The translations under genes were made by a program, and so were the position numbers. This document shows positions 11,805-42,901 of a stretch of DNA of 43,312 nucleotides, one piece after another. Source of the stretch: a virus. Lineage: Duplodnaviria; Heunggongvirae; Uroviricota; Caudoviricetes. The notes under the pieces were generated by a model that had not been told where the DNA came from, made no database searches, and worked only from the letters and a program-made list of their open reading frames with translations. Numbering within the stretch: position 1 is the first letter of the stretch; every line of letters starts with the position of its first letter. The stretch spans positions 1 through 43,312 of the IMG/VR virus record IMGVR_UViG_2565956616_000006; one strand, 5' to 3'.

Positions 11805-11850
11805 ATTCGTAATGCGAAGGTCGTAGGTTCGACTCCTATTATCGGCACCA
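11805..11850 (+). tRNA. 3'-terminal 46 nt of tRNA-Thr(CGU) (anticodon loop to CCA); att core, not a complete tRNA gene
   Basis: ATTCGTAATGCGAAGGTCGTAGGTTCGACTCCTATTATCGGCACCA matches the 3' part of enterobacterial thrW as recalled; upstream 30 nt do not match the tRNA 5' half. Confidence 0.75.
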
Positions 11851-11852
11851 TT
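11833..11852 (+). repeat. att direct repeat copy A (CTCCTATTATCGGCACCATT)
   Basis: 18-nt core TCCTATTATCGGCACCAT recurs at 30355-30372 and 42759-42776 in the same orientation. Confidence 0.85.
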
Positions 11853-12015
11853 CAAACATCTCCCCAAGTCTACTAAAGTCTTTCAAAACCCCTTATAATC
11901 CGCGTATTAAAGCCCCGCTCGTCTTTTGACGTCTACTAAAGTCCCTCAAAATCTACGGTCAGATGGGGGTACTTATGGGGGTATTTGCTGTTCGGTTTAG
12001 TGGAGGTACCCCCAA

Positions 12016-13230
12016 GTGAAACTCAATGCCCGTCAAATAGACACAGCCAAGCCAAAAGAGAAGGCTTACAAGCTGGCCGATGGTGGCGGTTTGTATCTCT
12101 TGGTAAAACCTAATGGAGGTAAATACTGGCGACTTAAATATCGTGTAGCTGGTAAAGAGAAGCTATTGGCACTAGGTGTTTATCCTGAGGTTACTCTAGC
12201 CGATGCTCGGGCAAAACGTGAAGATGCGAAAAGAGGTATCGCTGGTGGTATCGATCCGATGGAAGCGAAACGAGAGGAAAAGATTGCCCGGGAAACGCAG
12301 TTAAACAACACCTTCAAAGATATTGCCATTGAGTGGCACAGCAGCAAATTAAAAAAATGGTCTGCTGGTTATGCTTCAGACATCCTCGAAGCCTTCAACA
12401 AAGATGTGTTCCCTTACATTGGCAAAAAACCCATCGCCGAAATCAAACCACTTGAACTTCTGAATGTGCTGCGTCGCATCGAGGGGCGCGGTGCTACAGA
12501 AAAAGCCAAAAAAGTGAGGCAACGGTGCGGGGAAGTTTTCCGCTATGCAATAGTCACTGGTCGCGCAGAGTATAACCCTGCACCAGACCTTACTAGCGCG
12601 ATGCAAGGCCATGAATCTAATCATTACCCTTTCCTTACAGCCAAAGAATTACCTGATTTTTTCAAGGCATTGTCCAGTTACTCAGGAAGCGCATTGGTTG
12701 TTATGGCGGCTCGTCTACTGATTATCACCGGCTTGCGGACTGGCGAACTACGTGGCGCATTATGGGATGAAATTGATTTCAACAAGGCTATCTGGGAGAT
12801 ACCCGCTTCACGTATGAAAATGCGGCGGACTCATATTGTGCCATTGTCTGAGCAGGCTCTTTCGCTTATTGGGAAGATTAGAGAAATAACAGGCAATTAC
12901 CCTCTTATGTTTCCCGGGCGCAATGATCCAAGGAAAACAATGAGCGAGGCCAGCATAAACCAAGTGTTTAAGCGCATTGGCTACGCTGGACGTGTAACTG
13001 GTCATGGGTTCCGGCACACTATGAGTACGATTTTGCATGAGCAGGGCTATAACACCGCGTGGATAGAAACGCAGCTCGCTCACGTTGATAAGAACTCAAT
13101 TCGTGGCACATACAACCATGCGCAATATCTGGATGGAAGGCGGGAGATGCTTCAATGGTATGCCGACTATATGGATTCTCTCGAGCATGGCGGAAATGTG
13201 GTGCATATGGTGTTTGAAAAACACGCATGA
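12016..13230 (+). CDS. int: Tyrosine integrase, P4/CP4-57 (IntA) family
   Basis: 404 aa; N-terminus KPKEKAYKLADGGGLYLLVKPNGGKYWRLKYR typical of P4-like integrase arm-binding domain; C-terminal HGFRHT and Y-containing catalytic motifs; GTG start with GGAGG RBS; immediately downstream of tRNA 3' core. Confidence 0.85.
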   Translation: MKLNARQIDTAKPKEKAYKLADGGGLYLLVKPNGGKYWRLKYRVAGKEKLLALGVYPEVTLADARAKREDAKRGIAGGIDPMEAKREEKIARETQLNNTFKDIAIEWHSSKLKKWSAGYASDILEAFNKDVFPYIGKKPIAEIKPLELLNVLRRIEGRGATEKAKKVRQRCGEVFRYAIVTGRAEYNPAPDLTSAMQGHESNHYPFLTAKELPDFFKALSSYSGSALVVMAARLLIITGLRTGELRGALWDEIDFNKAIWEIPASRMKMRRTHIVPLSEQALSLIGKIREITGNYPLMFPGRNDPRKTMSEASINQVFKRIGYAGRVTGHGFRHTMSTILHEQGYNTAWIETQLAHVDKNSIRGTYNHAQYLDGRREMLQWYADYMDSLEHGGNVVHMVFEKHA

Positions 13231-13373
13231 AACAACTGGACAAGTATACAGAGGTTTACTAAAGTATAGGGGAGTAGATTGATAAAAACTCACAGAGGAT
13301 TGCTATTTAACAGTTAGCCCTGGAGAAGGGCAATCGCTCTTTTATAAACGAAGGTGTATTGAGCCTTCTACGT

Positions 13374-13436
13374 CGCTGACAAAGCGGAATGTTCTTTAAC
13401 AGGCTTTGGCGCTGACAAAGCGCAATTGTTCTTTAA
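13374..13436. repeat. Two ~26-bp direct repeats (CGCTGACAAAGCG.AATGTTCTTTAA) 36 bp apart
   Basis: Seen directly between int and alpA; candidate integrase arm sites or operator. Confidence 0.5.
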
Positions 13437-13658
13437 AACTACTGGATGTCACGCCTAATAGCGTGATCCTGCCGAAATGCAGGGTAGCTCTACCCTTGTG
13501 GAGCAAACAAACCAAAACAATCTGACTATCTTTTATAAAAGACCGCAATATGTTTTTCATATTGTGGTCTTTGGCGTATTCGACATTTGACGCAAATAAA
13601 ACTCTCGCCATTCGTTGCAGGAGGGAGTTATTGCGTCATTAGTACAGGATATTAATAA

Positions 13659-13862
13659 ATGGCTAATTACAATTCATTAATTCGTCTCTCTGAAGTTCAA
13701 AGGCGAACTGGTTATAGCAAAGCATGGATTTATCGTCTTATTAGTCAGGGGAGGTTCCCTAAACAGGTAAAAATTGGAAGTCGGGCAATTGCTTTTGTTG
13801 AGTCTGAAATAGATGAATGGATTGAGAAGTGTATATTAGAATCTAGAGACGAGGTGGCCTGA
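13659..13862 (+). CDS. alpA: AlpA-family DNA-binding protein (excisionase/regulator-like)
   Basis: 67 aa; LIRLSEVQRRTGYSKAWIYRLISQGRFPKQVKIGSRAIAFVESEIDEWI resembles the AlpA/prophage CP4-57 regulatory protein HTH. Confidence 0.75.
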   Translation: MANYNSLIRLSEVQRRTGYSKAWIYRLISQGRFPKQVKIGSRAIAFVESEIDEWIEKCILESRDEVA

Positions 13863-14293
13863 TGGAAAAGAAAAACCGCCCATTACAGGCGGCTAATTCA
13901 GATATTCGTGTATCTGATGTTACGCCCCTTACAAAATCCCTTCAAGCACCAAAGCGCACACCGAAAAAGCATCGTGCCAGAGTCTATATGCTGCGTACTG
14001 GTATAGAGGGATGGACAGAAAATGACATTCTTCGCTACTGCCGTCTGTCTTCTGGTCGTAACTATGCAACAGAGTTAGAACGCCAGCTTGGAATCACTCT
14101 GGAGCGTATCGACGAAAAGAATCCTGATGGTATCGGAACACACCTTCGCTACCGTTTCTCCTGCCGTGGTGATGTTCTGAAAGTGATCACTCATATTAAC
14201 CATCTTGCGAACATAAATGATCACAACGGACTTTCTCAGCAGGAAATTGCCGACATTCTGAAACTCTACCCGGACGCGTTTAACGCCGCCTAA
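13862..14293 (+). CDS. Hypothetical protein (143 aa)
   Basis: ORF translationally coupled to alpA. Confidence 0.5.
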   Translation: MEKKNRPLQAANSDIRVSDVTPLTKSLQAPKRTPKKHRARVYMLRTGIEGWTENDILRYCRLSSGRNYATELERQLGITLERIDEKNPDGIGTHLRYRFSCRGDVLKVITHINHLANINDHNGLSQQEIADILKLYPDAFNAA

Positions 14294-14305
14294 CGGAGAC
14301 TGAAA

Positions 14306-15139
14306 ATGAACATCGAAAAAAGCAGATTAATTTCTGAGGCCGCCCCTCATCTGAACGCCTCTCTGGGCACAATTAACGGTAATGAATTTGCCGCAATTGT
14401 CCCGGTTATTCCTGGTCATATCGGTGGGCGTGAAACCAATATTGTTAGCGCAAAAGCGTTACACAAAGCGTTGGGCGTGGGAAAAGACTTCTCTACATGG
14501 ATCACTGATCGCATCTCTGAATATGACTTCACCATTGGGCACGATTACTCAGTCCATAAAACAATTTCCCCAAATTTGGGGAAAAGCCCGAATGGCGCGG
14601 CTTACAGCAAGATAAAGCACTCTGGCAGACCCGGCAAAGACTATCTGTTAAGTGTCGGAATGGCGAAAGAACTGGCAATGATCGAACGCAATGATCAGGG
14701 TCGCGCTATCCGCCGTTATTTCATCCAGTGCGAGGAAGAATTACAGCGTAGCGTGCCTGAAATCGCCGCCCGCTATCGTCGCCAGCTAAAAGCCCGTCTC
14801 AGTGCCGCAAACAACTTTAAGCCAATGTGCGATGCGCTGAATATGGCCCGTGCCGAGATGGGTAAAACGACGCAGCAACACCACTACACAAACGAGAGCA
14901 ATATGATTTCTCGTATCGTTCTTGGTGGGCTAACTGCTAAGCAGTGGGCGCGGATAAATGGCTATTCTGGCGAACCTCGCGACCATATGAACGCAGAACA
15001 GCTTGAGCACCTCTCATATCTCGAAAGCACCAATATCACGTTAATTGATATGGGCATGGAATATGAGCAGCGCAAAGGAGAACTCACCCGCCTGTCGCAA
15101 CGCTGGCTCGCCAAGCGTCTGGAGGTGGTCAATGTCTAA
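14306..15139 (+). CDS. Hypothetical protein, possibly antirepressor-like (KilAC-type C-terminal motif)
   Basis: 277 aa; segment DYLLSVGMAKELAMIERNDQGRAIRRYFIQCEEE resembles phage antirepressor/KilAC domains (weak, from memory). Confidence 0.45.
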   Translation: MNIEKSRLISEAAPHLNASLGTINGNEFAAIVPVIPGHIGGRETNIVSAKALHKALGVGKDFSTWITDRISEYDFTIGHDYSVHKTISPNLGKSPNGAAYSKIKHSGRPGKDYLLSVGMAKELAMIERNDQGRAIRRYFIQCEEELQRSVPEIAARYRRQLKARLSAANNFKPMCDALNMARAEMGKTTQQHHYTNESNMISRIVLGGLTAKQWARINGYSGEPRDHMNAEQLEHLSYLESTNITLIDMGMEYEQRKGELTRLSQRWLAKRLEVVNV

Positions 15140-15314
15140 GCCAACAGGAACACCACAACCACAAAAACGCTACAAAGATGCCCACGGAGCACTCGTTACT
15201 GTCGAAAGCGTGTCTCACAACCGAGTGACGTTTTATCGCGACGGGTATCAATCGCCATGCGTACAACCGCTGGCGCGTTTCATGAAGGAGTTCGCGGAGG
15301 TTAACAAATGCTAA
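15132..15314 (+). CDS. Small hypothetical protein (60 aa)
   Basis: ATG at 15132 with GGAGGTGG RBS; inside longer ORF 15045-15314. Confidence 0.4.
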   Translation: MSKPTGTPQPQKRYKDAHGALVTVESVSHNRVTFYRDGYQSPCVQPLARFMKEFAEVNKC

Positions 15315-16375
15315 CCGTCCAGAAGAAGACATTTTCACTGGCTGGTATGTCGCCAAAATCCAGCAATATGACGGCAAAGTCAGGCATTAATACCGCAGAT
15401 ACAAGCAAAGTTTATCATTTGCTGGTGGTCGGAACGGATGCCTTAACCATATCAGAAATCTCGGGCGATGATATTAGCATTGAGAAGGTCAGCGGCTGCG
15501 CCAGAAAATTTCTGGTCGTAGATGATGTCTTCCGCTCGTGTAGTGACTCCACAAAAACATTCGTCCACGCGCGTGACGTTAACGAAATGAGCGCGATGTA
15601 CTGTGCATCTGGTGCTTCCAATAGCGAGTTTTCGGAGTCCATAAAAAAGAGCTTGCCGTTATGCGGCAACACGGTTTATGGTTATAAGGCACCTCATAAA
15701 ACGGGTGCCGGGATTGGCGTCCTGGTAAATCGAATGGCGACATATGACGCGCCGAGCGTCTTTTTTTATGTCGTAGGTCTGACTCACCCATTTTTTGGGC
15801 GTTGGTGTATAATCCAGCGCCTTTGTCAATCAATGGTGGCTCAGGCAGGGGCTTCTTCGGAAGCGCCGGTATCCATTCGAGCCGGTTACGCCAACCCTGT
15901 CTGGGCTACCACCAGCGAAATTGGCGTTTCCGGTGGTAGCGTTACATGCTATCGAATGGAGGCTGCCACATGCTGGCTACTACCCCTACCCAAAAACCGC
16001 AATTTATCTGGATTATCGCCGCAGTTCGCCGCGATTGCCCGACAATTACCGCCAAAATTCATCATATTGCTGCCGAGTCTGAACGCGATGCTCGCCGTTC
16101 TCTGGTGCGCGATCACGTCTGCTTTTTTGCTGGTCGTATCCGCATGGAGGTGGCTCATGATTAAAACCTACGATGTGCATATGGATCCCCTCGAACGCAC
16201 AAGCCAGATCATCACACTGACAGAAGTGATTAACGACATTCTGGTGAGCAACTCTCCCTCACGAGACGAAAGACTGAAGGCGTTACTCGCGATATTGGAT
16301 CTCGCCGTTCGTGACGTTCATTTCCTGCTGGAAGGTGGCGAAATGCCAGGAAAAACGGGGGCAACCAATGAATAA
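15308..16375 (+). CDS. Hypothetical ORF (355 aa); gene model uncertain
   Basis: ATG with GGAGG RBS 9 nt upstream, but low-complexity translation; internal RBS-supported starts at 15970 (other frame, 64 aa, ends 16164) and 16157 (same frame, 72 aa) suggest several small genes may occupy this interval. Confidence 0.3.
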
Positions 16376-16562
16376 CTCAATTAATACCCCTCGCCTTACG
16401 TCCGCACTTCAATTAATCGAGCAAGCAGCGGCTGTCCTGGTTGCTGTCAGTCTTTCGGCTGAAGAAATGGACGCTGCTGATGTCGTGGATGCGATTAAAG
16501 CGTGCTCATCTTTGGTTAACGATGCCCGTGCCGAGCTGGTAATTCTTGGGGGTGAAAAATGA
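16368..16562 (+). CDS. Small hypothetical protein
   Basis: ATG start MNNSINTPR within ORF 16311-16562. Confidence 0.4.
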   Translation: MNNSINTPRLTSALQLIEQAAAVLVAVSLSAEEMDAADVVDAIKACSSLVNDARAELVILGGEK

Positions 16563-16822
16563 ATATCAACTTAATTTATCGTCATCCGTGTGAGCTGGAA
16601 ATTGAATCATTGCTGGGGCGTGAAGAGCCATATCCAGACACATTCACTCCCGCAGATTGCGCGACTGAACGGCTTACCAGAGCGCGCACAGGTCTGGTTC
16701 ATGTGATGAATGAGATTGTTCCCTCGGTGGGAGGGGAACAGGCGACAGTAATCAATAGCTGGCTACAAAAAGTTACCTCCCTGATAGATATCGGTTTAAT
16801 CGATGTGGAGAGTGCGAAATGA
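16559..16822 (+). CDS. Hypothetical protein (87 aa)
   Basis: ORF with overlapping stop/start coupling to neighbours. Confidence 0.45.
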   Translation: MNINLIYRHPCELEIESLLGREEPYPDTFTPADCATERLTRARTGLVHVMNEIVPSVGGEQATVINSWLQKVTSLIDIGLIDVESAK

Positions 16823-17040
16823 CCAACATCCAGCTCATTGAAGCGCAATGTCGCATCGAACAGGTTCAGACTGTTTTAGGGTTCTGGCTTGAAGGGGCCA
16901 GCCCCAGCAACAGAGACAAGTTAATGATTGGCGCGGTTATGTCACTGCTTAATGGCGTACCAGAAGCTATTCAGGAAGCGGACGAATTGTTGGGCAAATA
17001 TGAGTTACAGAATCATTCAGGCGAGGCGAAACATGAATAA
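16819..17040 (+). CDS. Hypothetical protein (73 aa)
   Basis: ORF, translationally coupled. Confidence 0.45.
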   Translation: MTNIQLIEAQCRIEQVQTVLGFWLEGASPSNRDKLMIGAVMSLLNGVPEAIQEADELLGKYELQNHSGEAKHE

Positions 17041-17635
17041 TTTCTTAACTTTCCATGCAGAAGCAACGCCTGACGGCGTAAACATCATGTACCGCAGCAA
17101 CGATGGCATGACAGAACGCGTTGAGGCCATCTCATATATTGATGCCGTAAATCGTCTGGATGCCGGGGATTATGACGATAAACCAGATGAAGGTATGTCA
17201 ATACATCTCGCTATTGCCGATGGCGGCAACCAGGGATATTTCGATTACACATCACAGCATAACGTCATTATGTGGAGATGGCTGATCGCAACAGTATTCA
17301 TGCTGGAAATGAGAGAGGAAAACGGCACTGTCAGCATCATTGATGATACTGGCAATCCTTCCGAAGTGGCTGTTTATTCCAACGGCATCGTCGCCATGCC
17401 GCTGTATCCAGTAGCAGAGCGCCTCGCTATGGCAAACAACATTGAGGGCGCGATGATAGAACGTTTTGGCATCGAGTCTGGCACAGAACGCGCCATCATT
17501 TTCTACAGAGCCATGATGGATGTGGAACAAGGAGCACTGACTCCATTTGGTCGTGAAACGCTTGCTGAACTTCACAACAGCTTTATAGCTGAACTGAATG
17601 AAAACGGCATGCCAGCGGAACCAGTGACGCACTGA
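17033..17635 (+). CDS. Hypothetical protein (200 aa)
   Basis: ATG at 17033 (MNNFLTFHAEA) within ORF 16928-17635. Confidence 0.5.
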   Translation: MNNFLTFHAEATPDGVNIMYRSNDGMTERVEAISYIDAVNRLDAGDYDDKPDEGMSIHLAIADGGNQGYFDYTSQHNVIMWRWLIATVFMLEMREENGTVSIIDDTGNPSEVAVYSNGIVAMPLYPVAERLAMANNIEGAMIERFGIESGTERAIIFYRAMMDVEQGALTPFGRETLAELHNSFIAELNENGMPAEPVTH

Positions 17636-17645
17636 GGATGGAGCC

Positions 17646-17987
17646 ATGATTACTAAAAATTTCCGACTGAATGCGCTGGCAAATAAGTATGCGTCGGCAC
17701 TGTATAACCACATTACCTCCACCAGCGGCGGGGACTATTTCATGGTTGATGCGGACGGCGAGGCCGTCCGTGTGGAAATCGTCAATGGAGTAAAAGGCGT
17801 TCGCAGCCTGATCGATAGCTACACACTGGCAGCCATGAAAGTGTTCTACCCGCAGTGGGAAACCGTGGGGATCGAGCTTCTTGAACGTTGCGTCACTAAG
17901 GACGGATTGACTGACGTCGGGCGTGAGATATGGCAAAGCATGGTTAATGACATGGGCGCAACTGTAGCGGGAGGTTCTCATGCGTGA
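17646..17987 (+). CDS. Hypothetical protein (113 aa)
   Basis: ORF in co-directional small-gene cluster upstream of primase. Confidence 0.5.
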   Translation: MITKNFRLNALANKYASALYNHITSTSGGDYFMVDADGEAVRVEIVNGVKGVRSLIDSYTLAAMKVFYPQWETVGIELLERCVTKDGLTDVGREIWQSMVNDMGATVAGGSHA

Positions 17988-18351
17988 AAATGCAGAAATG
18001 GCGCTTAGCTCAGCAATCGGAGAGCAGGTGGCAAAGATTGCTGGTGCTGTGTGGATTCATAACCTTCATTCTACTGGTGAAGAGAAAATGGTAATTCAGA
18101 CGCCAGAGGGACGCACCATTACTACATCTCTGAAGCCGTCAGATGTTTGTGATCTGATTTGCGCATTCATGTACCCAGCAATGAGGACTGTCCACGGCGA
18201 TAAGTGGAAACTTGCGACAACCGCTGAATTTGATATGTGGCTAAACAATGATGGCATGCTGACTGATTACGGAATAACCAAGTGGCAGATGCTGGTTAGC
18301 CATATCGCAAACGCTATAGACCACGTGGGGTACGGTGATGCGAAACATTGA
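17980..18351 (+). CDS. Hypothetical protein (123 aa)
   Basis: ORF overlapping neighbours by a few nt. Confidence 0.5.
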   Translation: MRENAEMALSSAIGEQVAKIAGAVWIHNLHSTGEEKMVIQTPEGRTITTSLKPSDVCDLICAFMYPAMRTVHGDKWKLATTAEFDMWLNNDGMLTDYGITKWQMLVSHIANAIDHVGYGDAKH

Positions 18352-21094: not shown

Positions 21095-21112
21095 GCTTCT
21101 TCATGTGCGTAG

Positions 21113-21233: not shown

Positions 21234-21280
21234 ATGTGACTGAATTGATGCGCACAACACCTGGCTGGCATCAGAGAGTG

Positions 21281-33484: not shown

Positions 33485-33505
33485 TAACAGGAGAAGGAGA
33501 AAACT

Positions 33506-33673
33506 ATGAGCGAAACCAAGAAACCAATTCCACGCACTTACCTACACGTTGACCCTGAAATTTTCAAGATTTTATTTGCTGAAGCCAAGAAAAGGCAAAT
33601 TATGGTCAGTGATTTGATGTTAGAAATCATTACTGAAGCAGCAGAGAACATCAAACAAAAAAAGGGTAAGTGA
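33506..33673 (+). CDS. Small hypothetical protein (55 aa), possible RHH/partition-like DNA binder
   Basis: ATG with GGAGAAGGAGA RBS; hand translation MSETKKPIPRTYLHVDPEIFKILFAEAKKRQIMVSDLMLEIITEAAENIKQKKGK. Confidence 0.45.
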   Translation: MSETKKPIPRTYLHVDPEIFKILFAEAKKRQIMVSDLMLEIITEAAENIKQKKGK

Positions 33674-33726
33674 TCCTCATTCACTTTAGTAGCGCATTAA
33701 GCGTGATTTATAAGGAGATAATTCTA

Positions 33727-34407: not shown

Positions 34408-34416
34408 GGAGAATAA

Positions 34417-34686
34417 ATGGCTTATAACATCACTATAGGAAACAAAACTATTGAAATAACTGAGAGCGGATACCACATTTTAAAAGCTATTTTGGAAATA
34501 GAGTTCTCACCGCCGACAGTGGTTAGCTTTTGTAGTTTAGGCGGCTACAGCGCACAACACGTGAATCATTGGTTAAACCATTTTACATCGTTCGGTGTGC
34601 TGGATTATGAAGGGATTAACCACACTACATTTCGTCTTTTGAAATTAAACAAAGATTTTGAATTGTTTATCACAAACAATCAATAA
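34417..34686 (+). CDS. Hypothetical protein (89 aa)
   Basis: ORF with AAGGAG RBS. Confidence 0.45.
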   Translation: MAYNITIGNKTIEITESGYHILKAILEIEFSPPTVVSFCSLGGYSAQHVNHWLNHFTSFGVLDYEGINHTTFRLLKLNKDFELFITNNQ

Positions 34687-34782
34687 CAACAGATCGGGCA
34701 ATACATATGGCAAATGCATTTATGGCGATATTCATCGTAACTATGGCATTAAGTTTTTATAATCCACATAAAAAGAGGGAAA

Positions 34783-35169
34783 ATGGGAAAAAAGAAACGT
34801 AATAACTTAAAACGTATTGAAAAAAACAGTAACTTCAATTCAACAAGACAACGTCCACCGACACATACCAATAACGAAATTCCAGGGGAAGAGATAATCT
34901 TCATTTTAGAATCTAACAGCCCACCACTTACAAACGAAGAATTAGAAATTATTCAATCAATGGGTGATGGTGTGTATTTCAAACCCAGAACAAGAAAGAC
35001 AACGATTATAGAACCTGGCACATTAAAGAAATGGCAGCTGTTAAATTTTACCAGCTACAGGCACTATATCGGTTTTAATAGTTTCAACAATCAGGTAGGC
35101 GGCGTTACAGAAACAGATCTGATGCAGCACCTGATCGACACTCTCGCATCTAACAAACGTTCAAACTAA
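34783..35169 (+). CDS. Hypothetical protein (128 aa)
   Basis: ORF with AGAGGGAAA RBS. Confidence 0.45.
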   Translation: MGKKKRNNLKRIEKNSNFNSTRQRPPTHTNNEIPGEEIIFILESNSPPLTNEELEIIQSMGDGVYFKPRTRKTTIIEPGTLKKWQLLNFTSYRHYIGFNSFNNQVGGVTETDLMQHLIDTLASNKRSN

Positions 35170-35186
35170 AAATAAAAGGAACAACA

Positions 35187-35390
35187 ATGATCGACCATAT
35201 ACAGGAAACACAATTATTTCAGATGATCCTGTCTGATGCAAAAAACTATGCTGAGTTAATTCGGCTGGCAAAAGAAACAGAAGACTACGAAGCATTAGAG
35301 CGTTATCGTGATGAAGTGCTGACGCTCAAGACACCTTTTAACATCGTATTGAATATGATTAATGATGCATTACAAGGAGAAGCCGCATAA
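35187..35390 (+). CDS. Hypothetical protein (67 aa)
   Basis: ORF with AAAGGA RBS. Confidence 0.4.
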   Translation: MIDHIQETQLFQMILSDAKNYAELIRLAKETEDYEALERYRDEVLTLKTPFNIVLNMINDALQGEAA

Positions 35391-35698
35391 TGGAAGAAGA
35401 TATTAGCAATGCAATGGAACAACTTTTAGATCTGACTATCTCACTACAAACAAGAATAAATCAAGCCTATTCAGATTTATGCGATTACACGCTCTCTCAA
35501 TGCGTTATTAGCTTAATGAAGGTGAATGTAAGCCTTGACGATTTTATCTCTCTGGGGAGCGGTTTAGAGCTATCAGAGGACAATGCCAGGCTGTGCACTC
35601 AAATCATCACAGACACCGCAAGCACGTTAAAGGCTGCAAGTGAAGAGATTCAGCAATTAGTAAATGATTTAGCAAAAAGTGCTATTTCTTCTAAGTGA
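35390..35698 (+). CDS. Hypothetical protein (102 aa)
   Basis: ORF with AAGGAGAAG RBS, coupled to previous gene. Confidence 0.45.
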   Translation: MEEDISNAMEQLLDLTISLQTRINQAYSDLCDYTLSQCVISLMKVNVSLDDFISLGSGLELSEDNARLCTQIITDTASTLKAASEEIQQLVNDLAKSAISSK

Positions 35699-36683
35699 TA
35701 ATGAAAATCATTTGCATTTATAACAATTTCATTATATAATGAAATTAGGGGTAGATAAAAAGGTTTTGACTGGTGTTAATCCTTCTACTGTCATAAATCC
35801 CTGCATATGGAAGGTGATAGCCTCAAAGGTTGAGTGGCATTAACCTCTAACAAATATTACCTTCCATCTCTCAAGAAGTTTTAGAATAATCATAACTCCC
35901 TCTTTGATTGTTGATTGTTTCTACGTTGTGTTGATGAATGTTGTTAGGCATTGTGCTTAATTTTGATAAAAGCGGGTAGGTGTTATCTCCTTGCCCTTCC
36001 CGCTATTATTTTTCATCTATGCTTATCCTAAAGCTCCTTATTTTGTCCGAAAACATTAAAGAGCCTTACACTGATAGTTATATTTTATAACTATTTACTA
36101 ACATCATTAAACTCTTATTTAATGACGGAAGTTAGTAACAGAATAATCTATTAAGTTGTTGTCAAAAAACTATCATCTGCATAGCGTTAGCCGCAAGTAG
36201 AGAGAGTTTAGTTAAGAATGGTGCAATAAACTTTGGAAATATTGATAGCAAAACTAGTTTTATAGAATGCGGATCTATAATCTTTGGTTGTAAAAACGAT
36301 TTTCTGAAACGGTAGATTACTGTTGGTGTAGTTAATCATTATTAAAAATTTAATCTGTGAGTAGATTGGAATAGTGATTCCTTAAAATCTGACTGGTGCA
36401 TCCACACCATGAAAGATAGCGGTTGGCCACCGCGCCCCGAATAGATATTCCTGATTGATTCCGCATGTTTTCCTAAGAGCATGTTTTCAGGAGTATCTAT
36501 TCACCCTTTAAGCATATCATCAAGTATATTTAAAAAGTGTATTTGCTGATATGTTTAATCCTCTTATAGTTTAACTTATCAATTATGTAATTGCCCGCAC
36601 GTTAAAGCCCCTTTGCTGGTCAGAATTAACCTCTTACGGCATTGGGGCTTTTTATTTGTCTGGCACTAACAGGAACGTTATTT

Positions 36684-36881
36684 ATGAAACAAGAAATGAT
36701 TATCAGCAAAGACGGGGAAACGATGATTGTTAGTGATGAAAACCTCATTAAGGTTGCCGCACTGTTGGGAGTTACTCCCGAAAGTCTTCGTTCTACCACT
36801 GCTCAATTATTTAAATCGGCTGATGCGGTTAGTCTTGCTGATGCCCTTAAATCTAAAATTAAACAACTGAAAGGAAAATAA
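36684..36881 (+). CDS. Small hypothetical protein
   Basis: Internal ATG (MKQEMIIS) of ORF 36642-36881. Confidence 0.35.
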   Translation: MKQEMIISKDGETMIVSDENLIKVAALLGVTPESLRSTTAQLFKSADAVSLADALKSKIKQLKGK

Positions 36882-36885
36882 TCTT

Positions 36886-37269
36886 ATGGCTAACCCATAT
36901 GGAAAATTAAAAGCAGTGAATGCGGATAACTCCCGTTCACGCTGTAAGGTAGTAGCTTACGCTGCTGATCCAGTGCTGCAAGATCGCCTCGTCAAACTGG
37001 CTTCACCTCTCACTGACGATCTTATTGTCGGGGCTTTGCTGAAAGCCGATGGCACCAAAGCAACAACCGCATCTGATATTGCTCACGTAGTAGTTGAACC
37101 GGCTTATGAAGGACAGGAAAGCGTAGTGGTTGCACATCCTACTTTCGTTATTCTGGCTGAAGATGGGATTGAATTTAACAGCATGGAAAAGGCAAGTGTT
37201 ATTGCAAAACTGCAATCTCTCGGCTTTGTAATTGCTGGTTATGAAGAACTTGCGATCCCTACGACTTAA
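36886..37269 (+). CDS. Hypothetical protein (127 aa)
   Basis: ORF with AAAGGAAAA RBS. Confidence 0.5.
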   Translation: MANPYGKLKAVNADNSRSRCKVVAYAADPVLQDRLVKLASPLTDDLIVGALLKADGTKATTASDIAHVVVEPAYEGQESVVVAHPTFVILAEDGIEFNSMEKASVIAKLQSLGFVIAGYEELAIPTT

Positions 37270-37283
37270 CAAGGAAAATAATA

Positions 37284-38315
37284 ATGAATGATTTATCAAC
37301 ATATTTTGGCGTTAATACTGCGGTAGTAACTCCATTTGCTTATGAGAATGCACTTAATACCCTGATTACTAATCTCGATCTGTTCGATGTGCAATATCAT
37401 ACAGAAAACAGCATTCTTCTTACCGACCTGATTGATCAGTTTGTGCAGGTAGCTGGGGAAACCTCGCCTTACGCTCAAAGCGACTGGAACGCCTCTAAAC
37501 GTCAGGAATGGTCAAACAAACTTTTCCAGATGAAACACGTCGGCAGTATTAACGCTGTTACTTCTCGTGACCTGGAACAATACAGCCGCCAATATCCAAA
37601 CCGTTCTGATGCTATGCTGGTAGCGGTTAATGATTTCTCTGAGGCTCATTACCGTTCACACGCAAACCGTGTTGAAGTGGATCTGATTACCGCGCTGCTG
37701 GGCCTGAAAGTTGAATCTGAATATGCCGGACAAGGTGATCTCGACTTCCTCGACGGTCAGGCTAAAACCACGGTACCCGCTATCGACTTTGCATCGACTA
37801 CTGTTAACCCGTTCCTTGCTATTCGTAAAGCGGTGCGCTTACAGAGTGAAAAGCTGGGGTCTGGTCTTGCTGCAAAGCGAACTGGTGTAATTATCTTTGC
37901 TGCTGGCACTGCTGCTGATGGTTTGTCATCTAACCCGCTGATCAGTGACATGGTGAAATATGCAGGCGATGCGAGTGCTACGGCCCTGTTTACCCGTATG
38001 GTTGATTCTAACCCAGCCTATGACTCTTTCCAGATTGGTGGGATCACTGTTATTGATGTGTCAATGTTTCCTGAGATTGTTGCTCACATCGGAGAGAACG
38101 GTTTCGCAATTGTTCCGGTAATGGATAAAGCGGCACAGTGTTACCAGCTTCATAGCGGCGTTGGTGTGCGTCATGCTGAGTTAGGTCAAGATGCCGTGTT
38201 GCATCACCAATATCTAATCAAGGATGAATTCCAATTCCCATCTGTGGTTACTGAGACATCTTATCTGCCAGTAAACAACATTCCGCAAGCTATCATCTTC
38301 GGATCTGCTGCGTAA
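37284..38315 (+). CDS. Hypothetical protein (343 aa), possibly structural
   Basis: Long ORF with AAGGAAAA RBS; no recognised catalytic motifs. Confidence 0.5.
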   Translation: MNDLSTYFGVNTAVVTPFAYENALNTLITNLDLFDVQYHTENSILLTDLIDQFVQVAGETSPYAQSDWNASKRQEWSNKLFQMKHVGSINAVTSRDLEQYSRQYPNRSDAMLVAVNDFSEAHYRSHANRVEVDLITALLGLKVESEYAGQGDLDFLDGQAKTTVPAIDFASTTVNPFLAIRKAVRLQSEKLGSGLAAKRTGVIIFAAGTAADGLSSNPLISDMVKYAGDASATALFTRMVDSNPAYDSFQIGGITVIDVSMFPEIVAHIGENGFAIVPVMDKAAQCYQLHSGVGVRHAELGQDAVLHHQYLIKDEFQFPSVVTETSYLPVNNIPQAIIFGSAA

Positions 38316-38466
38316 TAAAGCGTTAATAGACGATTCCCCATCGGGGCAATAAGGGTAAAGGGATTAACTAACCTGTAGGCGCAAATACAGTAACGAATCT
38401 CTTTGCCCTTTTTGTTTTTCTACTGTCTACAAACCCAAATAAAAATATATATGTGAGAGAAAACCA

Positions 38467-38679
38467 ATGAATACAGAAAACCCACAATCCTTTATTCTTA
38501 AGGCTGTAAAAGAACTGGCAGCTATTAGCGAGGAATCAGTTATAAACACATCGGCGCTTTGCCGCCTTTTAGAAATTGATGCAAATAATGTGCGCCAGCG
38601 TGTCTTTCAGACTGGGTGCAGCACTTTCGAAGCAATTCAATACTATTGCTCTAAAAACAATAATAAACAACAATCATAA
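38467..38679 (+). CDS. Small hypothetical protein (70 aa)
   Basis: ORF with GAGAGAAAA RBS. Confidence 0.4.
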   Translation: MNTENPQSFILKAVKELAAISEESVINTSALCRLLEIDANNVRQRVFQTGCSTFEAIQYYCSKNNNKQQS

Positions 38680-38697
38680 TACAGGGAAACAATTAGC

Positions 38698-40539
38698 ATG
38701 TTAGACCTTACCGTCAGCCGCTTATCAAACGTTGTCACCTTCCAGGTTGATCGACCATCATTAGAGAAAGCAAAAGCAGAAGTAGAAAAACTTCGTAAAC
38801 AAATGGCGGCTGTGAAAGATATAGAATTGCGTGTTAAGACACATAAACAATCAACCGCTAAAGCAAAAAAAGACGTAGACGATATTGCTAAAAAGCAAGC
38901 ACAGGCTGATAAAGCTAATGCTAAAGCACAATTAGCCGCTCAACGTGTAGTTGCAAGAGAACAAAAAGCCCTGGCAGCACGCAAAGAGAAGGCAGAATTA
39001 AAGCTTTTAGACGTTGGATCAAGCATTAGTGCAATGCACCGTCTTTCTGTAGCGGAACAATATAAAGCTATTGCACAGGCTAGAGAAATTGCCCTCCAAT
39101 ATGAAAGAGGCGCTATTAGTCTGGCACGTATGAATAGCCAAATGAAACGCCTACAACAGCAACAACGTAAGATTAATGGCAATCGTAACGCTCACGCTAA
39201 AGCCTATGCACCTGTTAAGGGTAGCGGGAGTATTGGCGGCGGTGCTGCGGCTGTTATGCTGGGTGGCTTAGGCGCTGGCGCTGCATATATGGCTATGAGC
39301 AAAGCCTCTGAATTTGTTACTAACAGCTTTGCCAGTGCTGAAACGCTGGGAGAATTGTATAGCCGTGCGAAGCTGGGCGGTGTAGACGTTAACCAGATGA
39401 ACAATATTGAGCAATGGGCCTACAAAAACGGCGTTGATTCAATGATGGGGGATCAAGGTAAACGTAAGTATCTCGATCAGATGAAAGATGTACGGGAGAA
39501 GGCTACTAAATCTTATGATGAGGCTGAATATGTAGTTGATAAGAAAACTGGTAAAGGAGAATGGAAGGGCGGCGATAGCGGCATCAATACTTTAATGAAT
39601 GAAGGATTCTTAACTAAAAAGGATCTAAAAGACTTTGCTGATAATCCGGCTGGTCTGGTTAGTAAAGCAGTTCAGGGAATGGTGAAGAAAGGCTATTCAG
39701 ATGCACAAATCGGTAGTCGTCTGGAAGATCTGGCTGATGATTTGATGCTCACCTCTAAATACTGGACACGCTCCGCTAAAGAAGTGGAACAATCAGCACG
39801 AGAACAACGAGAATCAGGGCGCTGGGTAACACAGGCACAACAGGAAAGCGTTATTAAATTCCGTGAACTGAATAATGCACTTAGTGGGCTTTCTGACTCA
39901 CAAGGGATCGCCTTTGTTGATGGCTTTATGAAATCTCTTGATCCGAAAGTGATTGAAGAGTTTAAAAAGAGCATGGTTGCAATGCTGCCAATGTTTACCA
40001 AATTAGGCGAGGCTATCGGCGGATTGGTTAACGCTGTAATGAAAGCAATCAACTGGCTGATGAAAAACGACGAGAAGACGGCAGCTATTCAGAAGAATTT
40101 AGGTGATGCACCGCCACTATCTAACGAAGGAATGAAGCAGAATCTTTCTAATCTCACTCCTGATCAATATAAAGGCGCTGGCACCGGAACAATTAAGCCA
40201 GATAACAGCAATTCCCTGGTTAACACTATTAAAAGCTGGTTTATGCCAGAAGAAACGGTAGGTGGGGCGCAGGCTGTAAATCAATACAGTCTCGAAGGAC
40301 AAAACATTGCAAATCTGAAACAGAGTGCAGCACAACAAGCTTTCAAGGCTCCTTCTTACACCTTTGCGCCTGTTATCCACTTCAATCCAGAATTACAAGT
40401 AAATGCAGAAGTGCCGCTAACTATCGAATCAGACACCGGACGATTGAGCGAATTTATCGACTTCAAATCAAAGGCATCCTCCGCTGAGTTTAGCAAGCTA
40501 TTAACGCTGGGTGTTATGTCAGGCGGGTCAACCTATTAA
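38698..40539 (+). CDS. Hypothetical protein (613 aa): N-terminal Lys/Ala/Gln-rich coiled coil plus Gly-rich hydrophobic segment; tape-measure-like or ejection/pilot-like
   Basis: Residues about 20-165 strongly coiled-coil-like; GSGSIGGGAAAVMLGGLGAGAAYMAMS segment resembles membrane-active segments of tape measure and E proteins. Confidence 0.55.
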   Translation: MLDLTVSRLSNVVTFQVDRPSLEKAKAEVEKLRKQMAAVKDIELRVKTHKQSTAKAKKDVDDIAKKQAQADKANAKAQLAAQRVVAREQKALAARKEKAELKLLDVGSSISAMHRLSVAEQYKAIAQAREIALQYERGAISLARMNSQMKRLQQQQRKINGNRNAHAKAYAPVKGSGSIGGGAAAVMLGGLGAGAAYMAMSKASEFVTNSFASAETLGELYSRAKLGGVDVNQMNNIEQWAYKNGVDSMMGDQGKRKYLDQMKDVREKATKSYDEAEYVVDKKTGKGEWKGGDSGINTLMNEGFLTKKDLKDFADNPAGLVSKAVQGMVKKGYSDAQIGSRLEDLADDLMLTSKYWTRSAKEVEQSAREQRESGRWVTQAQQESVIKFRELNNALSGLSDSQGIAFVDGFMKSLDPKVIEEFKKSMVAMLPMFTKLGEAIGGLVNAVMKAINWLMKNDEKTAAIQKNLGDAPPLSNEGMKQNLSNLTPDQYKGAGTGTIKPDNSNSLVNTIKSWFMPEETVGGAQAVNQYSLEGQNIANLKQSAAQQAFKAPSYTFAPVIHFNPELQVNAEVPLTIESDTGRLSEFIDFKSKASSAEFSKLLTLGVMSGGSTY

Positions 40540-40586
40540 TCATCACTGTGGGGCTGTTTAGCCCCCTTAAATAAGGATTACAAATT

Positions 40587-41255
40587 ATGGCAATGGGTCC
40601 GTTAACCATTGGTCGCCCGACTGAGGCGAAAATCAACAGCACAAGCAACGATAGAACAACCAAAGGGGGTAACGGCTTTGCGATCATTACCTCTAACCTC
40701 GGCAGTGGTGCAAATGCTGCTTACAATGACTACCAGGCATTATCATTTGATAGCGTGGAATCGACGAAAGTTAGCCGAAATGCAGACGTTACAAGCTATG
40801 CCGTCGAATCAGGATCAGAAGTTAGTGATCATGTTCAAATACGGAATAACAAGTTCACATTACAGGGGCGTATCTCTGAAACCGTATTGAAGCTCAATCC
40901 CGATATGATTAAGAATGCGGGAATTAACGGCAATCGACGTATGCTTATGCTTGAATACCTAAATCAGTTGATGGACAGTCGCCAACCTTTCCTACTTGTC
41001 ACTGAGTTAAAAAATTATGACAACGTTGTGTTAGTTGGCATGTCTTATGAAGAAGAAGCAAGCGAAAGTCTATTGTTTACTCTTGATTTTGAGCAAATCC
41101 GTCTTGTCTCTAAAGCAACTACAAGCGCAATTGCGGTAAAAACAGCACCAAATAAATCTGTAGGGGGACAGGTTAAAATGCAGGTAAATACAACAGAACA
41201 GAAAAATCAAAAAAGCCCAGGGCAAGACGTTGTAACGCCAGTATTTAAACAATAG
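40587..41255 (+). CDS. Hypothetical protein (222 aa)
   Basis: ORF with AAGGA RBS, downstream of a stem-loop. Confidence 0.5.
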   Translation: MAMGPLTIGRPTEAKINSTSNDRTTKGGNGFAIITSNLGSGANAAYNDYQALSFDSVESTKVSRNADVTSYAVESGSEVSDHVQIRNNKFTLQGRISETVLKLNPDMIKNAGINGNRRMLMLEYLNQLMDSRQPFLLVTELKNYDNVVLVGMSYEEEASESLLFTLDFEQIRLVSKATTSAIAVKTAPNKSVGGQVKMQVNTTEQKNQKSPGQDVVTPVFKQ

Positions 41256-41336
41256 CCTTAAACGCCTATGAAACGCTCTGTAACGATGTAATTATAAAAG
41301 AGGCCACCAATCTATGTTGAAGCCTCTTTATTGCGC

Positions 41337-42701
41337 CTATGGCGTTGTTTTGCGCCTTAAATTTGATTTTTTATTGATTGATAAGCCTTTCTCTATTTCA
41401 GGGTAGCGTAGAAGCTCAATATAGTTTTTAAGCTCTACTGGAGAAGCTGCATTCTTGCTATATGTGCGGAATGTCTCTGTATTGCCGCGTGTATGGCCCA
41501 GGAGAAGGGCGATCCTGTCTTCTGGAATTTGATTTCGATCAAGAAGCTGTGCTACTCCGTGTCTCAGAGAATGAAACACTTTCCTTTCTGTTCCCTTTTC
41601 CCCTAAAGCCTTTCGTTTAGCTCTTGTAAATCGTTGTGTATGCCACGTAGAGCGTTTACCGTCAGCACGCTCTGTAATGCTGGCGTGATAGAACAAAAAG
41701 CCATTGTGAGGCTTTTCACGAAGAGATAACACCAATGGAGTGATAAGGCTATGCACAGGCACAAGACGTGCCGCAGCTTTCGTCTTTCCCTGTGTGATTT
41801 CAAAACACAGCACACCTTCGATCTCTTTCACATCGTCTATTGTGAGACTTGCTATCTCATTGATCCGCATACCTGTATATAAACCGATAAGACACAAAGC
41901 CATCATTTCTTTGTTTTCTGCTGAATTACCGGAAAATACTTGCAACACCTGCAATAACTCTTTGTTAGAAAATGCCTCGTAGCTCTCTCTACTTTGTGCC
42001 ACATCAAGCCTATGCCCTCGCCAGGGGGAGAGCGCCCTTTCTGGCGCATCGTGGTAACGTGATGAAGCTAACTCCCATAGCTGGGCCATTGGGCTGATAT
42101 AATTTGCAATTGATTGTTGTGAAAGGGTTTTTTGCATGTGTTCAATCCAGCCTGTAACAGTGGTGCGGCTTACATCTTGCAATGCAATATCAGGCTTTTT
42201 ACGGTAGGAGAGAAACATCTCTACCGCTTTTCTTGCCTTAGCTAAAGTGGCTGGCTTCTTCTTCGTGCTGTTAATTGTCAGGTAGATTTCAAGAATTTTA
42301 AGCAATGACGGACACGAAGACGCTGTATCTTGCATTCTGGTAGCTGTTTTGGCGTATTTAGCCTTACTGCGTAACAGTTCCAGCGTGTTTTCTATTGTGC
42401 TGTTTACAGGGGCAACACTCTCCCGTAAGCAATGGTATTCATCTGCAATCTGATCACGCTTTCTACGTGCAACACGAAGATTACTTGTGTGCAGACTTCT
42501 GACAAACGTCCTTTTTCCTTCAAAAAAGGGCTGCATATACACAGGCAGCGTGATCCTTAAATAGTAGTTACCGTAAGAATCACAGATTAAGTATTGGTTA
42601 GGCTTGTATCTCATAAAATCTCCGGCTAAAGTGTCGGAGCGTTTGTAATGTGAAAATTGATTGTGACGCATAGAAAATGATGATTTTTCTATAAGATTCA
42701 A
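41337..42701 (-). CDS. int: Tyrosine recombinase/integrase of island 2 (probable start at 42614)
   Basis: C-terminal catalytic motifs (FHSLRHG; LLGHTRGNTETFRTYS); unrelated in sequence to the island-1 integrase; internal ATG (MRYKPNQ) has a GGAG RBS. Confidence 0.8.
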   Translation of the reverse strand: MNLIEKSSFSMRHNQFSHYKRSDTLAGDFMRYKPNQYLICDSYGNYYLRITLPVYMQPFFEGKRTFVRSLHTSNLRVARRKRDQIADEYHCLRESVAPVNSTIENTLELLRSKAKYAKTATRMQDTASSCPSLLKILEIYLTINSTKKKPATLAKARKAVEMFLSYRKKPDIALQDVSRTTVTGWIEHMQKTLSQQSIANYISPMAQLWELASSRYHDAPERALSPWRGHRLDVAQSRESYEAFSNKELLQVLQVFSGNSAENKEMMALCLIGLYTGMRINEIASLTIDDVKEIEGVLCFEITQGKTKAAARLVPVHSLITPLVLSLREKPHNGFLFYHASITERADGKRSTWHTQRFTRAKRKALGEKGTERKVFHSLRHGVAQLLDRNQIPEDRIALLLGHTRGNTETFRTYSKNAASPVELKNYIELLRYPEIEKGLSINKKSNLRRKTTP

Positions 42702-42758
42702 TCAATTAGTAATGGTCGTAGGTGATGGCATTAACACGAGATTAATCGAGTGTTTTAC

Positions 42759-42776
42759 TCCTATTATCGGCACCAT
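42759..42776 (+). repeat. att direct repeat copy C (TCCTATTATCGGCACCAT)
   Basis: Exact 18-nt copy; 20 of 20 with copy A when flanks are included. Confidence 0.8.
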
Positions 42777-42901
42777 TAAAATCAAAGAGTTACCCCATAT
42801 TTAAATACACCACGTTTCCTCCTGTGCCGCATTTGTGCCATTGTAACCCTGGCAATTCATCAAAATACTGTTCTGACATCAGGCAGTGCAGGTGCAGCTA
42901 T

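Follow-up and report, generated by a model that had tools for sequence, protein, structure and literature searches.

Two candidate phage satellites in a tandem array of integrative elements at the thrW locus of Escherichia coli

The IMG/VR record IMGVR_UViG_2565956616_000006, listed as a virus of the Caudoviricetes, comprises 43,312 nucleotides (nt); this whole stretch of DNA, positions 1 to 43,312, is called the window below. The window is Escherichia coli DNA of the proA-thrW...paoD locus and consists of the right part of a P22-like prophage, two islands, and a piece of chromosomal flank. Island 1 (11851-30354, 18.5 kb) combines an integrase-regulator-primase backbone with a mimic of the P22 packaging (pac) site and a set of P22-type ejection genes, and island 2 (30372-42758, 12.4 kb) encodes homologues of virion proteins of virulent phi92-like myoviruses. 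A first-pass annotation of the same DNA, made from the letters of the sequence, had described positions 11805-42777 as a tandem array of three elements with a common attachment (att) core from the 3' end of a threonine tRNA gene.

The thrW array

The units of the array and the repeats that separate them are:

1-11804, + strand: right part of a P22-like prophage (Pfam, Rfam sar, mosaic matches to E. coli P22-like prophages)
11805-11850, + strand: attR of the prophage and, in the last 17-18 nt, attL of island 1; the 46 nt match the 3' end of thrW (positions 31-76) exactly
30355-30372, + strand: shared junction, serving island 1 as attR and island 2 as attL; last 17 nt of thrW followed by a T
42757-42776, + strand: attR of island 2; 19 nt of the thrW 3' end
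42902-43312, - strand: piece of the chromosomal flank with a truncated pseudogene of the LysR family, located upstream of paoD (identical flanks are annotated in this way in RefSeq)

Exactly three copies of the 17-mer TCCTATTATCGGCACCA are present in the window, each on the + strand (starts 11834, 30355, and 42759), and 100 shuffles of the sequence gave no match. No complete tRNA was found in the window by ARAGORN, and the repeats were therefore compared with thrW from other genomes. The annotated 76-nt gene of E. coli strains MB49 and E2, identical in both, served as the reference. The first copy is identical to the thrW 3' end over 46 nt (11805-11850) and starts in the anticodon loop (ATTCGTAA), the second over 17 nt (30355-30371), and the third over 19 nt (42757-42775). 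All three are in direct orientation, and in all three CCA is followed by a T. The intact thrW lies outside the window; by analogy with strain LS45, it would be located at the left extremity of the prophage, some 30 kb to the left of position 1. Each unit has an integrase of its own: that of island 1 is encoded at 12016-13230 and that of island 2 at 41337-42614 on the - strand (24% identity over 176 amino acids (aa)), and the integrase of the prophage, which lies beyond the window, is present in its LS45 counterpart.

Different subsets of the units were found at thrW in other E. coli genomes. Strain MB49 carries island 1 alone (proA-thrW-island 1-truncated LysR-paoD), strain E2 carries island 2 alone, followed by the same flank as in MB49, strain O26 RM10386 has island 1 followed by a diverged island 2, and strain LS45 has a complete P22-like prophage followed by island 1. 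In other genomes, the BLAST matches of the two islands have their limits exactly at the repeats. Each repeat is followed either by the left end of the next unit or by the common chromosomal flank (TTAAAATCAAAGAG...), and the flank after the third repeat is the one that follows island 1 in MB49. Matches covering 80% or more of the query were obtained in 86 of 5,426 complete E. coli genomes for island 1 and in 135 for island 2. Since island 1 alone, island 2 alone, both islands, and the prophage with island 1 all occur with the same flanks, we conclude that these are three independent integrative units; the region 11805-42777 is almost certainly a tandem array of them at the E. coli thrW hot spot. 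The opposing view, in which the repeats arose by chance or are ancestral and the 31 kb form a single conserved piece of the chromosome, retains practically no probability. It is contradicted by the shuffling result, by the identity of the repeats to thrW, and by the independent presence or absence of each unit elsewhere, with breakpoints exactly at the repeats.

The first-pass description of the array is supported on most counts. The common att core of the three elements is confirmed by the identity to thrW and by the independent presence and absence of the units. The 46-nt core and the exact 18-nt repeats were found again, the latter being 17 nt of thrW plus the T seen in all copies, and the sizes of 18.5 and 12.4 kb agree. 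Both Pfam and the 24% identity reproduce the distinction drawn between a P4-family integrase in island 1 and an unrelated, inverted tyrosine integrase in island 2. The comparison with related thrW loci that had been suggested yielded the different subsets, with the same junctions, in MB49, E2, O26 RM10386, and LS45. The repeats proved to be tRNA-Thr 3' ends, and the 31 kb were seen as separately occurring units rather than as one segment. The P22-like nature of the prophage is borne out by its Pfam set, the sar RNA, and the 46-nt core.

Each unit would have been inserted by its own tyrosine integrase, with recombination inside the last 17-46 nt of thrW. Each would bring a replacement thrW 3' end, which preserves the gene and leaves part of its sequence behind at the distal junction. 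It is well known that thrW is an integration hot spot (PMC7545054). Insertion into its 3' end, direct repeats, serial elements, and the proA-thrW...paoD context are features of tandem accretion at this tRNA gene (P22 attB, CP4-6, PAI III536), from which the present array does not differ in principle. The tandem structure is ordinary and already known in kind, and the trio is one more combination.

Some distal repeats of island 1 are imperfect. In MB49 (locus L001, 22552-22571) the repeat lacks one G (TCCTATTATCG-CACCA), and in LS45 it has a further substitution. These degenerating attR copies may leave island 1 locked in place in the two strains.

Island 1 and P22-like phages

The features of island 1 are listed in order; ORF denotes an open reading frame and HTH a helix-turn-helix domain.

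12016-13230, + strand: P4/CP4-57-type integrase (Pfam Arm-DNA-bind_3, Phage_int_M, Phage_integrase)
13659-13862, + strand: AlpA-family regulator/excisionase-like HTH protein (Pfam Phage_AlpA, E 7e-20)
14306-15139, + strand: AntA/AntB-family antirepressor-like protein (Pfam AntA, E 3e-21), conserved in the island family
15456-15562, - strand: P22 pac-site mimic, 107 bp, inverted, homologous to nt ~268-374 of the P22-type small-terminase gene terS (gene 3)
15534-15562: core 29-mer of the pac mimic, GAATGTTTTTGTGGAGTCACTACACGAGC
15689-15766, + strand: IsrK-like RNA (Rfam RF01394, 67 bits, above the gathering score)
15829-15916, + strand: C4-type antisense RNA (Rfam RF01695, 79.5 bits, above the gathering score)
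18338-21094, + strand: primase/replicase, 918 aa, with zinc ribbon, TOPRIM, and DUF927 (Pfam)
21679-26515, + strand: ejection-protein block (Pfam DUF2824, P22_gp7, Inj_translocase; PHROG DNA transfer protein, E 2e-161)
21679-21840, + strand: conserved 53-aa ORF
21857-22318, + strand: gp14-like
22312-22989, + strand: gp7-like
22989-24410, + strand: gp20-like
24410-26515, + strand: gp16-like
26534-27148, - strand: SieA-like inner-membrane protein, 204 aa, four hydrophobic segments (PHROG 7745, E 4e-4, weak)
28018-28995, + strand: AbiD/Abi_2 abortive-infection protein, defence cargo (Pfam Abi_2, E 2e-52; PADLOC AbiD, E 7e-58)
29725-30012, + strand: PerC-family regulator (Pfam PerC, E 3e-33), recurring in family members

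The gene order int-alpA-pri is the backbone of Gram-negative phage-inducible chromosomal islands (PICIs), and the synteny is kept across genera. The left-arm synteny of island 1 accompanies primases of about 80% identity in Salmonella, Klebsiella, Enterobacter, Citrobacter, Pectobacterium, and other Enterobacterales. The IsrK-like and C4-type RNAs (15689-15916) constitute a predicted RNA-based immunity/regulatory module, and the backbone also contains small ORFs. Island 1 further has the P4-like trio of a P4-type integrase, AlpA, and a C4/CI-type RNA.

A copied helper packaging signal is a classic signature of satellites, and the cos site of P4 is the established example. A direct search for the 22-nt pac site of P22 with up to three mismatches gave nothing. 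The pac mimic surfaced only through BLAST of island 1 against the LS45 prophage, which returned a 102-bp match inside the small-terminase gene. When compared with terS of 117 P22-like phage records in the phage collection, the segment 15456-15562 was 84-92% identical and always inverted. It overlaps the annotated 22-bp pac site of P22-pbi; the corresponding 29-nt cores are GAAGATTTATCTGAAGTCGTTACGCGAGC in P22 and GAATGTTTTTGTGGAGTCACTACACGAGC in the island. Diverged islands keep only the core, often in two to three tandem copies, and have no terS flanks, which argues for the behaviour of a functional DNA site and not of a decaying gene fragment. A scan for the motif GAANNTTTNNNTNNNGTCNNTACNCGAGC with up to one mismatch covered 3.58 Mb of fetched loci, for which chance predicts about 0.006 hits. 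The motif was found only in genuine terS genes, in every island carrying the ejection block, and in three further family relatives that have no recognised ejection block (L107, L124, and L136); in the same loci it was absent from islands carrying a tape-measure gene.

P22-type terS was matched in 532 of the 5,426 complete E. coli genomes, in 258 as the whole gene and in about 270 only at nt 268-374. The pac mimic is thus about as common among these genomes as genuine terS. In most of the rows listed, the 107-bp-only fragment is annotated inside an "ash family" ORF. The corresponding ORF of island 1 ("ash family protein", "Icd-like"; 15308-16375) spans the pac mimic, the IsrK-like RNA, and the C4 RNA, and its Pfam Phage_ASH match (aa 124-232, nt ~15677-16003) coincides with both RNA genes. 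The annotation may represent partly translated RNA and DNA-site sequence. In three relatives (L026, L029, and L030) the primase is 100% identical and the pac-mimic region (15440-15590) differs by 13%, with the core GAAGG... instead of GAATG...; the packaging signal appears to have been exchanged or to evolve faster than the backbone.

The ejection block lies downstream of the primase, and all four ejection genes are intact. The closest relatives of the encoded proteins (70-93% identical) are all located in complete P22-like late operons, and a phage contig (L015) is 89% identical at the DNA level over the end of gp16 and the SieA-like gene. We therefore conclude that the block is part of the gene pool of real P22-like phages. 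Compared with the O26 copy, the ejection genes show 27 synonymous and seven non-synonymous differences (p = 4e-11), and the ratio of non-synonymous to synonymous change (pN/pS) against a diverged island, L050, is 0.15-0.37, comparable to the 0.21 of the primase. The ejection genes are under purifying selection and are maintained in the island context. The whole block is intact in L050, L051, L098, and L130, whose primases are only 49-75% identical, i.e., in at least four diverged lineages.

A recent duplication of the ejection genes of the neighbouring prophage was considered and rejected; the island and prophage proteins are 23-54% identical, and a single 86-bp patch matches at the DNA level. 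This patch (87%), the sole DNA similarity between the prophage and island 1, lies inside the gp20 genes (4451-4536 and 23532-23617) and is also kept in other P22-like phages. It may serve to anchor recombination, or it may be a motif under constraint.

The SieA-like gene has the same position and orientation after gene 16 as in P22-like phages. From the SieA motif FxRYPxEAxxFNK, only NRYPGEARRARK is present in the 204-aa protein. It has been shown that P22 ejection proteins from very divergent phages are interchangeable and work in P22 virions, that gp16 and gp20 are targets of SieA exclusion, and that every sieA gene examined lay inside a P22-like prophage (PMC10883804). Island 1 resembles those prophages in having the gp7/gp20/gp16 families followed by an opposite-strand gene for a small membrane protein with an RYPxEA-like motif, but its module is located in a non-phage island. 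A satellite-specific ejection set could alter entry or escape exclusion.

The pac mimic together with the mobilisation backbone makes a satellite of P22-like phages the best reading of island 1, and we hold it with moderate confidence. The first-pass annotation had called the island satellite-like, a view that is strengthened by the pac mimic and by the full P22-type ejection set. On infection by, or induction of, a helper phage on which it would depend, island 1 would excise and replicate. The small terminase of the helper would recognise the pac mimic, leading to headful packaging of island concatemers. The island gp14, gp7, gp20, and gp16 would be loaded into island particles, giving them a partly island-encoded DNA-delivery apparatus, and the SieA-like and AbiD proteins would be host-protective cargo. 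The ejection set would then be the podovirus counterpart of the tape measure and hub that the PICI-like elements (PLEs) of Vibrio cholerae build into chimeric tails (PMC11838301), the nearest case with experimental backing.

Several points weigh against this reading. No terS, rpp, ppi, or cpm/capsid-redirection genes were detected in island 1 by the Pfam and PHROG scans. The island core differs from the P22/LS45 pac at eight of 29 positions, and its recognition by a given TerS is predicted and unproven. The length of 18.5 kb corresponds neither to a full P22 head nor to one of obviously smaller size. Full-length P22-type terS is missing from most genomes with the pac fragment, which means that they usually have no resident helper. 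The assignment as SieA-like is weak (E 4e-4), and the ejection block adjoins the SieA-like gene as it does in a phage, with about 89% identity to phage DNA over gp16 and the SieA-like gene; the two could be a captured fragment kept for SieA.

The last point belongs to a wider alternative, namely that neither island has a satellite life cycle and that they serve in defence or as accessory islands, or are decayed chimeras, their phage genes being passengers captured along with useful genes (SieA-like, AbiD) or acting as decoys or poisons for invading phages. The AbiD and SieA-like genes adjoin the ejection block, as would fit a defence island, and the gp16 and SieA-like genes are syntenic with a real phage and about 89% identical. 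PICIs have a known hot spot for defence genes downstream of pri (PMC11364771), and mobile-element proteins are known to interfere with tail assembly (PMC11364771, PMC10884400). However, L050, L051, L098, and L130 keep the block intact and have neither SieA nor AbiD, the block always co-occurs with a conserved pac-like site that has no defence role, the ejection genes are as constrained as the primase, and Int, AlpA, the primase, and the RNA switch make up a mobilisation toolkit. We regard this alternative as unlikely.

The first-pass annotation had also proposed that the P22-like prophage and island 1 are a helper-satellite pair. At the level of phage type the proposal is supported: island 1 appears adapted to P22-type packaging and DNA delivery. 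The prophage-island 1 tandem recurs in LS45. In genomes with a full-length P22-type terS, up to about 90 further places match terS, and a several-fold enrichment of co-occurrence is conceivable should they be island fragments. For the specific neighbouring prophage the proposal is unsupported. The common thrW target fully explains the adjacency, and island 1 often occurs with no adjoining prophage, as at thrW in MB49 and O26. In a sample of complete E. coli genomes with the pac fragment, each of the 29 listed rows limited to the 107-bp fragment (28 without a packaging-gene annotation) lacks a second P22-type terS match. The ejection proteins are 23-54% identical to those of the prophage, eight of 29 positions differ between the island core and the pac of the LS45 prophage, and terS and pac of the prophage in the window lie beyond its edge. 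A partnership with the resident prophage, reflected in the adjacency, is in our view doubtful.

Lateral transduction might be a further consequence of the tandem. The prophage would package in situ from its own pac site rightwards through attR, and the islands would ride in the first headfuls irrespective of any satellite function. P22 does this over many headfuls (PMC8575950). The late genes of the prophage, and hence the direction of packaging, point toward the islands, and in LS45 about 19 kb separate pac from attR, so that a first headful of ~43.5 kb covers all of island 1. Such transduction is nevertheless limited to strains with this tandem, and it leaves the island pac mimic, the ejection proteins, and their conservation at other att sites unexplained. 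As an account of the tandem it is quite improbable, and it would complement the satellite model rather than replace it.

Island 2 and phi92-like phages

Island 2 has the following features:

30373-33300, no strand assigned: ORF-poor, AT-rich conserved left region, ~2.9 kb, 97% identical to the O26 variant over 1.58 kb
32259-32425: iteron-like array of GTAACGAnnCGTTAC palindromes, putative origin
33506-34407, + strand: 55-aa protein and HTH_36/replication-initiator-like protein (Pfam, PHROG), with near-identical copies in phage inny
37284-38315, + strand: major-capsid-like protein (HK97 fold), 343 aa
38698-40539, + strand: tape-measure-like protein, 613 aa (PDB Phi92_gp134, E 5e-22; PHROG tape-measure protein)
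40587-41255, + strand: Dit-like/baseplate protein (Pfam Dit_like, E 2e-27), homologue of the gene after the tape-measure gene in phi92-like phages
41337-42614, - strand: tyrosine integrase at the tRNA-distal end, facing inward (Pfam DUF6538, SAM_5, and Phage_integrase; RefSeq coordinates)

The layout (ORF-poor region, small ORFs, initiator-like gene, 127-aa ORF, capsid-like, tape-measure-like, and Dit-like genes, integrase) recurs in O26 with diverged cargo, in Klebsiella, and in another E. coli at a different att site. The integrase is 99.3% identical to that of the O26 variant. The ORF-poor region had no match in Rfam, and PADLOC and NCBIfam gave no match for island 2.

Virion-protein homologues tie the island to large virulent phages. 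A tblastn search of the phage collection with the tape-measure-like protein retrieved only tape-measure protein (TMP) genes of Stephanstirmvirinae-type phages of ~145-154 kb (134 records, up to ~32% identity). Within the island 2 family, the TMP is 27-33% and the post-TMP protein 48-61% identical to the inny proteins; the Dit-like protein of the window is 48.5% identical to inny_106. Homologues of the major capsid protein (MCP), TMP, and post-TMP baseplate protein of phi92-like phages were found in four diverged members of the island 2 family. Relatives of the capsid-like protein are matched by Pfam Phage_cap_E, and the O26 variant aligns over its full length to the inny MCP. A search of PDB with the 343-aa protein by phmmer was not significant. 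Foldseek with an AlphaFold2 (AF2) model of the protein (mean predicted local distance difference test score, pLDDT, 58.5) returned only phage HK97-fold capsids, with PhiTE at the top (E 1.5e-9) and the ICP1 capsid. Given the phmmer result and the weak model, the capsid assignment therefore rests on the Foldseek ranking, the Pfam match of the relatives, and the O26 alignment.

Closer similarity to these phages was detected in the replication region. The segment 33494-34118 (624 bp) has 95.4% DNA identity to the virulent phage inny (Justusliebigvirus). Because of this stretch, the 55-aa protein is 98% identical to inny_185, and the N-terminus of the initiator is 88-89% identical to that of inny_184. 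Recent exchange between the chromosomal island and lytic phages is implied. A match to phage muut was also found, with 98.7% DNA identity over 226 bp. In the ORF-poor region, stretches of ~40-70 bp are 85-100% identical to several coliphages of ~130-154 kb, and one of 43 bp (31482-31524) is 93% identical to a gene-free region of inny (138625-138667). The latter could be a shared regulatory or packaging signal.

Island 2 is a phage-parasite-like element tied to phi92-like myoviruses, a point that the first-pass annotation had missed. Whether it is a satellite of these phages appears to us evenly balanced. In that role, it would act against virulent phi92-like myoviruses in a way similar to that outlined for island 1, using its own initiator and iterons for replication and supplying alternative capsid, tape-measure, and baseplate-hub proteins. 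Two points count against this: the AF2 model of the capsid-like protein is of low confidence, and no packaging signal was identified in island 2, for which no link to phage induction is known.

The two variants of island 2 at thrW have conserved ends (integrase 99.3%, left non-coding region 97%) and swapped structural cargo. Their capsid-like proteins (L018 39531-40559 and 37284-38315 of the window) are ~18% identical.

The V. cholerae PLE, with its own TMP, chaperone, and baseplate hub (PMC11838301), is the nearest analogue of island 2, which likewise has TMP and post-TMP homologues 27-61% identical to those of a virulent myovirus. Carriage of TMP, hub, or ejection proteins also links the PLE to the island 1 family. 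Both islands differ from the PLE in their host and phage groups and in being known here from sequence alone; island 2 adds an MCP homologue, and island 1 would replace podovirus ejection proteins rather than a tape measure. In SaPIbov5, Ccm is a satellite-encoded homologue of the helper capsid protein (PMC8569155). SaPIbov5 and island 2 are alike as small islands having an HK97-fold capsid homologue and lacking the rest of a head module, and the island 2 protein has no sequence relationship to Ccm. By analogy, one might guess that the capsid-like protein of island 2 acts in capsid size.

Related islands, known satellites, and the prophage segment

Virion-protein cargo is found throughout the island 1 family. 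The right arm holds a lambda-type tape measure in Salmonella (L003), a lytic internal-virion protein in Pectobacterium (L007), and a baseplate hub with a small terminase in Klebsiella (L005). The IMG/VR loci show the same pattern and add a second TMP type and a three-gene set of podovirus internal proteins. This sample is biased toward loci with virion genes, and the survey was repeated on species-representative genomes. Among 33 islands with a full-length primase in these genomes, nine carry a TMP, two the P22 block, three to four other podovirus ejection-type genes, and one a hub. Thus about 15 of the 33 (roughly 45%) have a TMP, hub, podovirus internal-virion, or P22 ejection set downstream of the primase, which suggests a general and largely unstudied strategy. 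In a preprint of December 2025, TMPs in satellites are regarded as exceptional.

Not all cargo copies are intact. In Lonsdalea britannica (L111) the tape-measure gene is split into two ORFs (584 and 315 aa) and is a possible pseudogene. Two loci labelled Chryseobacterium sp. 18061 (L107 and L138) contain an enterobacterial-type island with a primase 78% identical; the label probably reflects contamination or a mislabelled assembly.

Island 1 was compared with two known kinds of satellite. With Gram-negative PICIs of the EcCICFT073 type (PMC11364771), it shares the int-alpA-pri order, variable cargo after pri, and defence genes. It differs from them in that terS, rpp, ppi, and capsid-remodelling genes were not detected, in its ejection proteins and pac mimic, in its length of 18.5 kb, and in an att site common to a prophage. 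Strict membership of the PICIs was rejected; the island has no packaging module, carries structural genes, and shares its att site with the prophage.

With P4, the satellite of P2, island 1 has in common a P4-family integrase, an AlpA-type regulator, a C4/CI-type RNA module, a large primase-type replicase, and a copied helper packaging signal (cos in P4, pac in island 1). The P4-like core set, which de Sousa and Rocha reportedly defined in 2021, is said to comprise int, psu, delta, sid, alpA, epsilon, and alpha. No Pfam or PHROG match to psu, delta (Ogr_Delta), or sid was obtained among the island 1 ORFs (20 scanned by Pfam, eight also by PHROGs), and strict P4-like membership was likewise rejected. 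Other differences are that the island primase is of the TOPRIM-DUF927 type and that the helper type would be a P22-like podovirus and not a P2-like myovirus. Both islands are best classed among the known satellite types, as new variants, and the array is textbook.

Searches of the literature for satellites with ejection proteins, P22-like helpers, PICI tape measures, and phi92/Stephanstirmvirinae satellites yielded no account of these islands. We suggest, tentatively, that a widespread enterobacterial satellite backbone (int-alpA-RNA switch-DUF927 primase) swaps helper-matched delivery modules; the thrW island 1 would be the first described satellite of a P22-like podovirus (pac mimic plus ejectosome), and island 2 an E. 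coli counterpart of the PLE on phi92-like (Stephanstirmvirinae) phages. Should packaging of island 1 go through the pac mimic and the island use its own ejection proteins, short-tailed P22-like phages would be open to exploitation by satellites, the chimeric-tail principle of the PLE would extend to the podovirus ejection apparatus, and host range and escape from SieA-type exclusion could be affected. Island 2, if a satellite, would offer a tractable E. coli model of an element targeting virulent phi92-like phages, a group represented in phage therapy collections.

The prophage segment to the left of the islands contains:

80-580, + strand: gp4 (Pfam P22_Tail-4 in the prophage set)
580-1998, + strand: gp10 (Pfam Phage_stabilise in the prophage set)
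1998-2699, + strand: needle
2699-3154, + strand: gp14 (Pfam DUF2824 in the prophage set)
3157-3852, + strand: gp7 (Pfam P22_gp7)
3863-5278, + strand: gp20
5275-7116, + strand: gp16 (Pfam Inj_translocase in the prophage set)
8084-8335, - strand: mnt (Pfam Arc/Mnt)
8588-8654, - strand: sar RNA (Rfam sar)
8590-9534, + strand: ant (Pfam P22_AR_C in the prophage set)
9635-11440, + strand: tailspike with P22 head-binding domain (Pfam Head_binding)

P22-type tail, ejection, and immI genes are in canonical order and are followed by the thrW att site. The integrase, head genes, early genes, and terS/pac lie beyond the window. The prophage is a mosaic, the best E. coli match having 83% coverage and 96% identity. 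After gene 16, at the position of sieA in P22, it carries two small genes (7141-7530 on the - strand and 7636-8067 on the + strand) whose products have signal-peptide/lipoprotein-like N-termini. Their PHROG matches are to function-less families only, and they are probably morons and not SieA.

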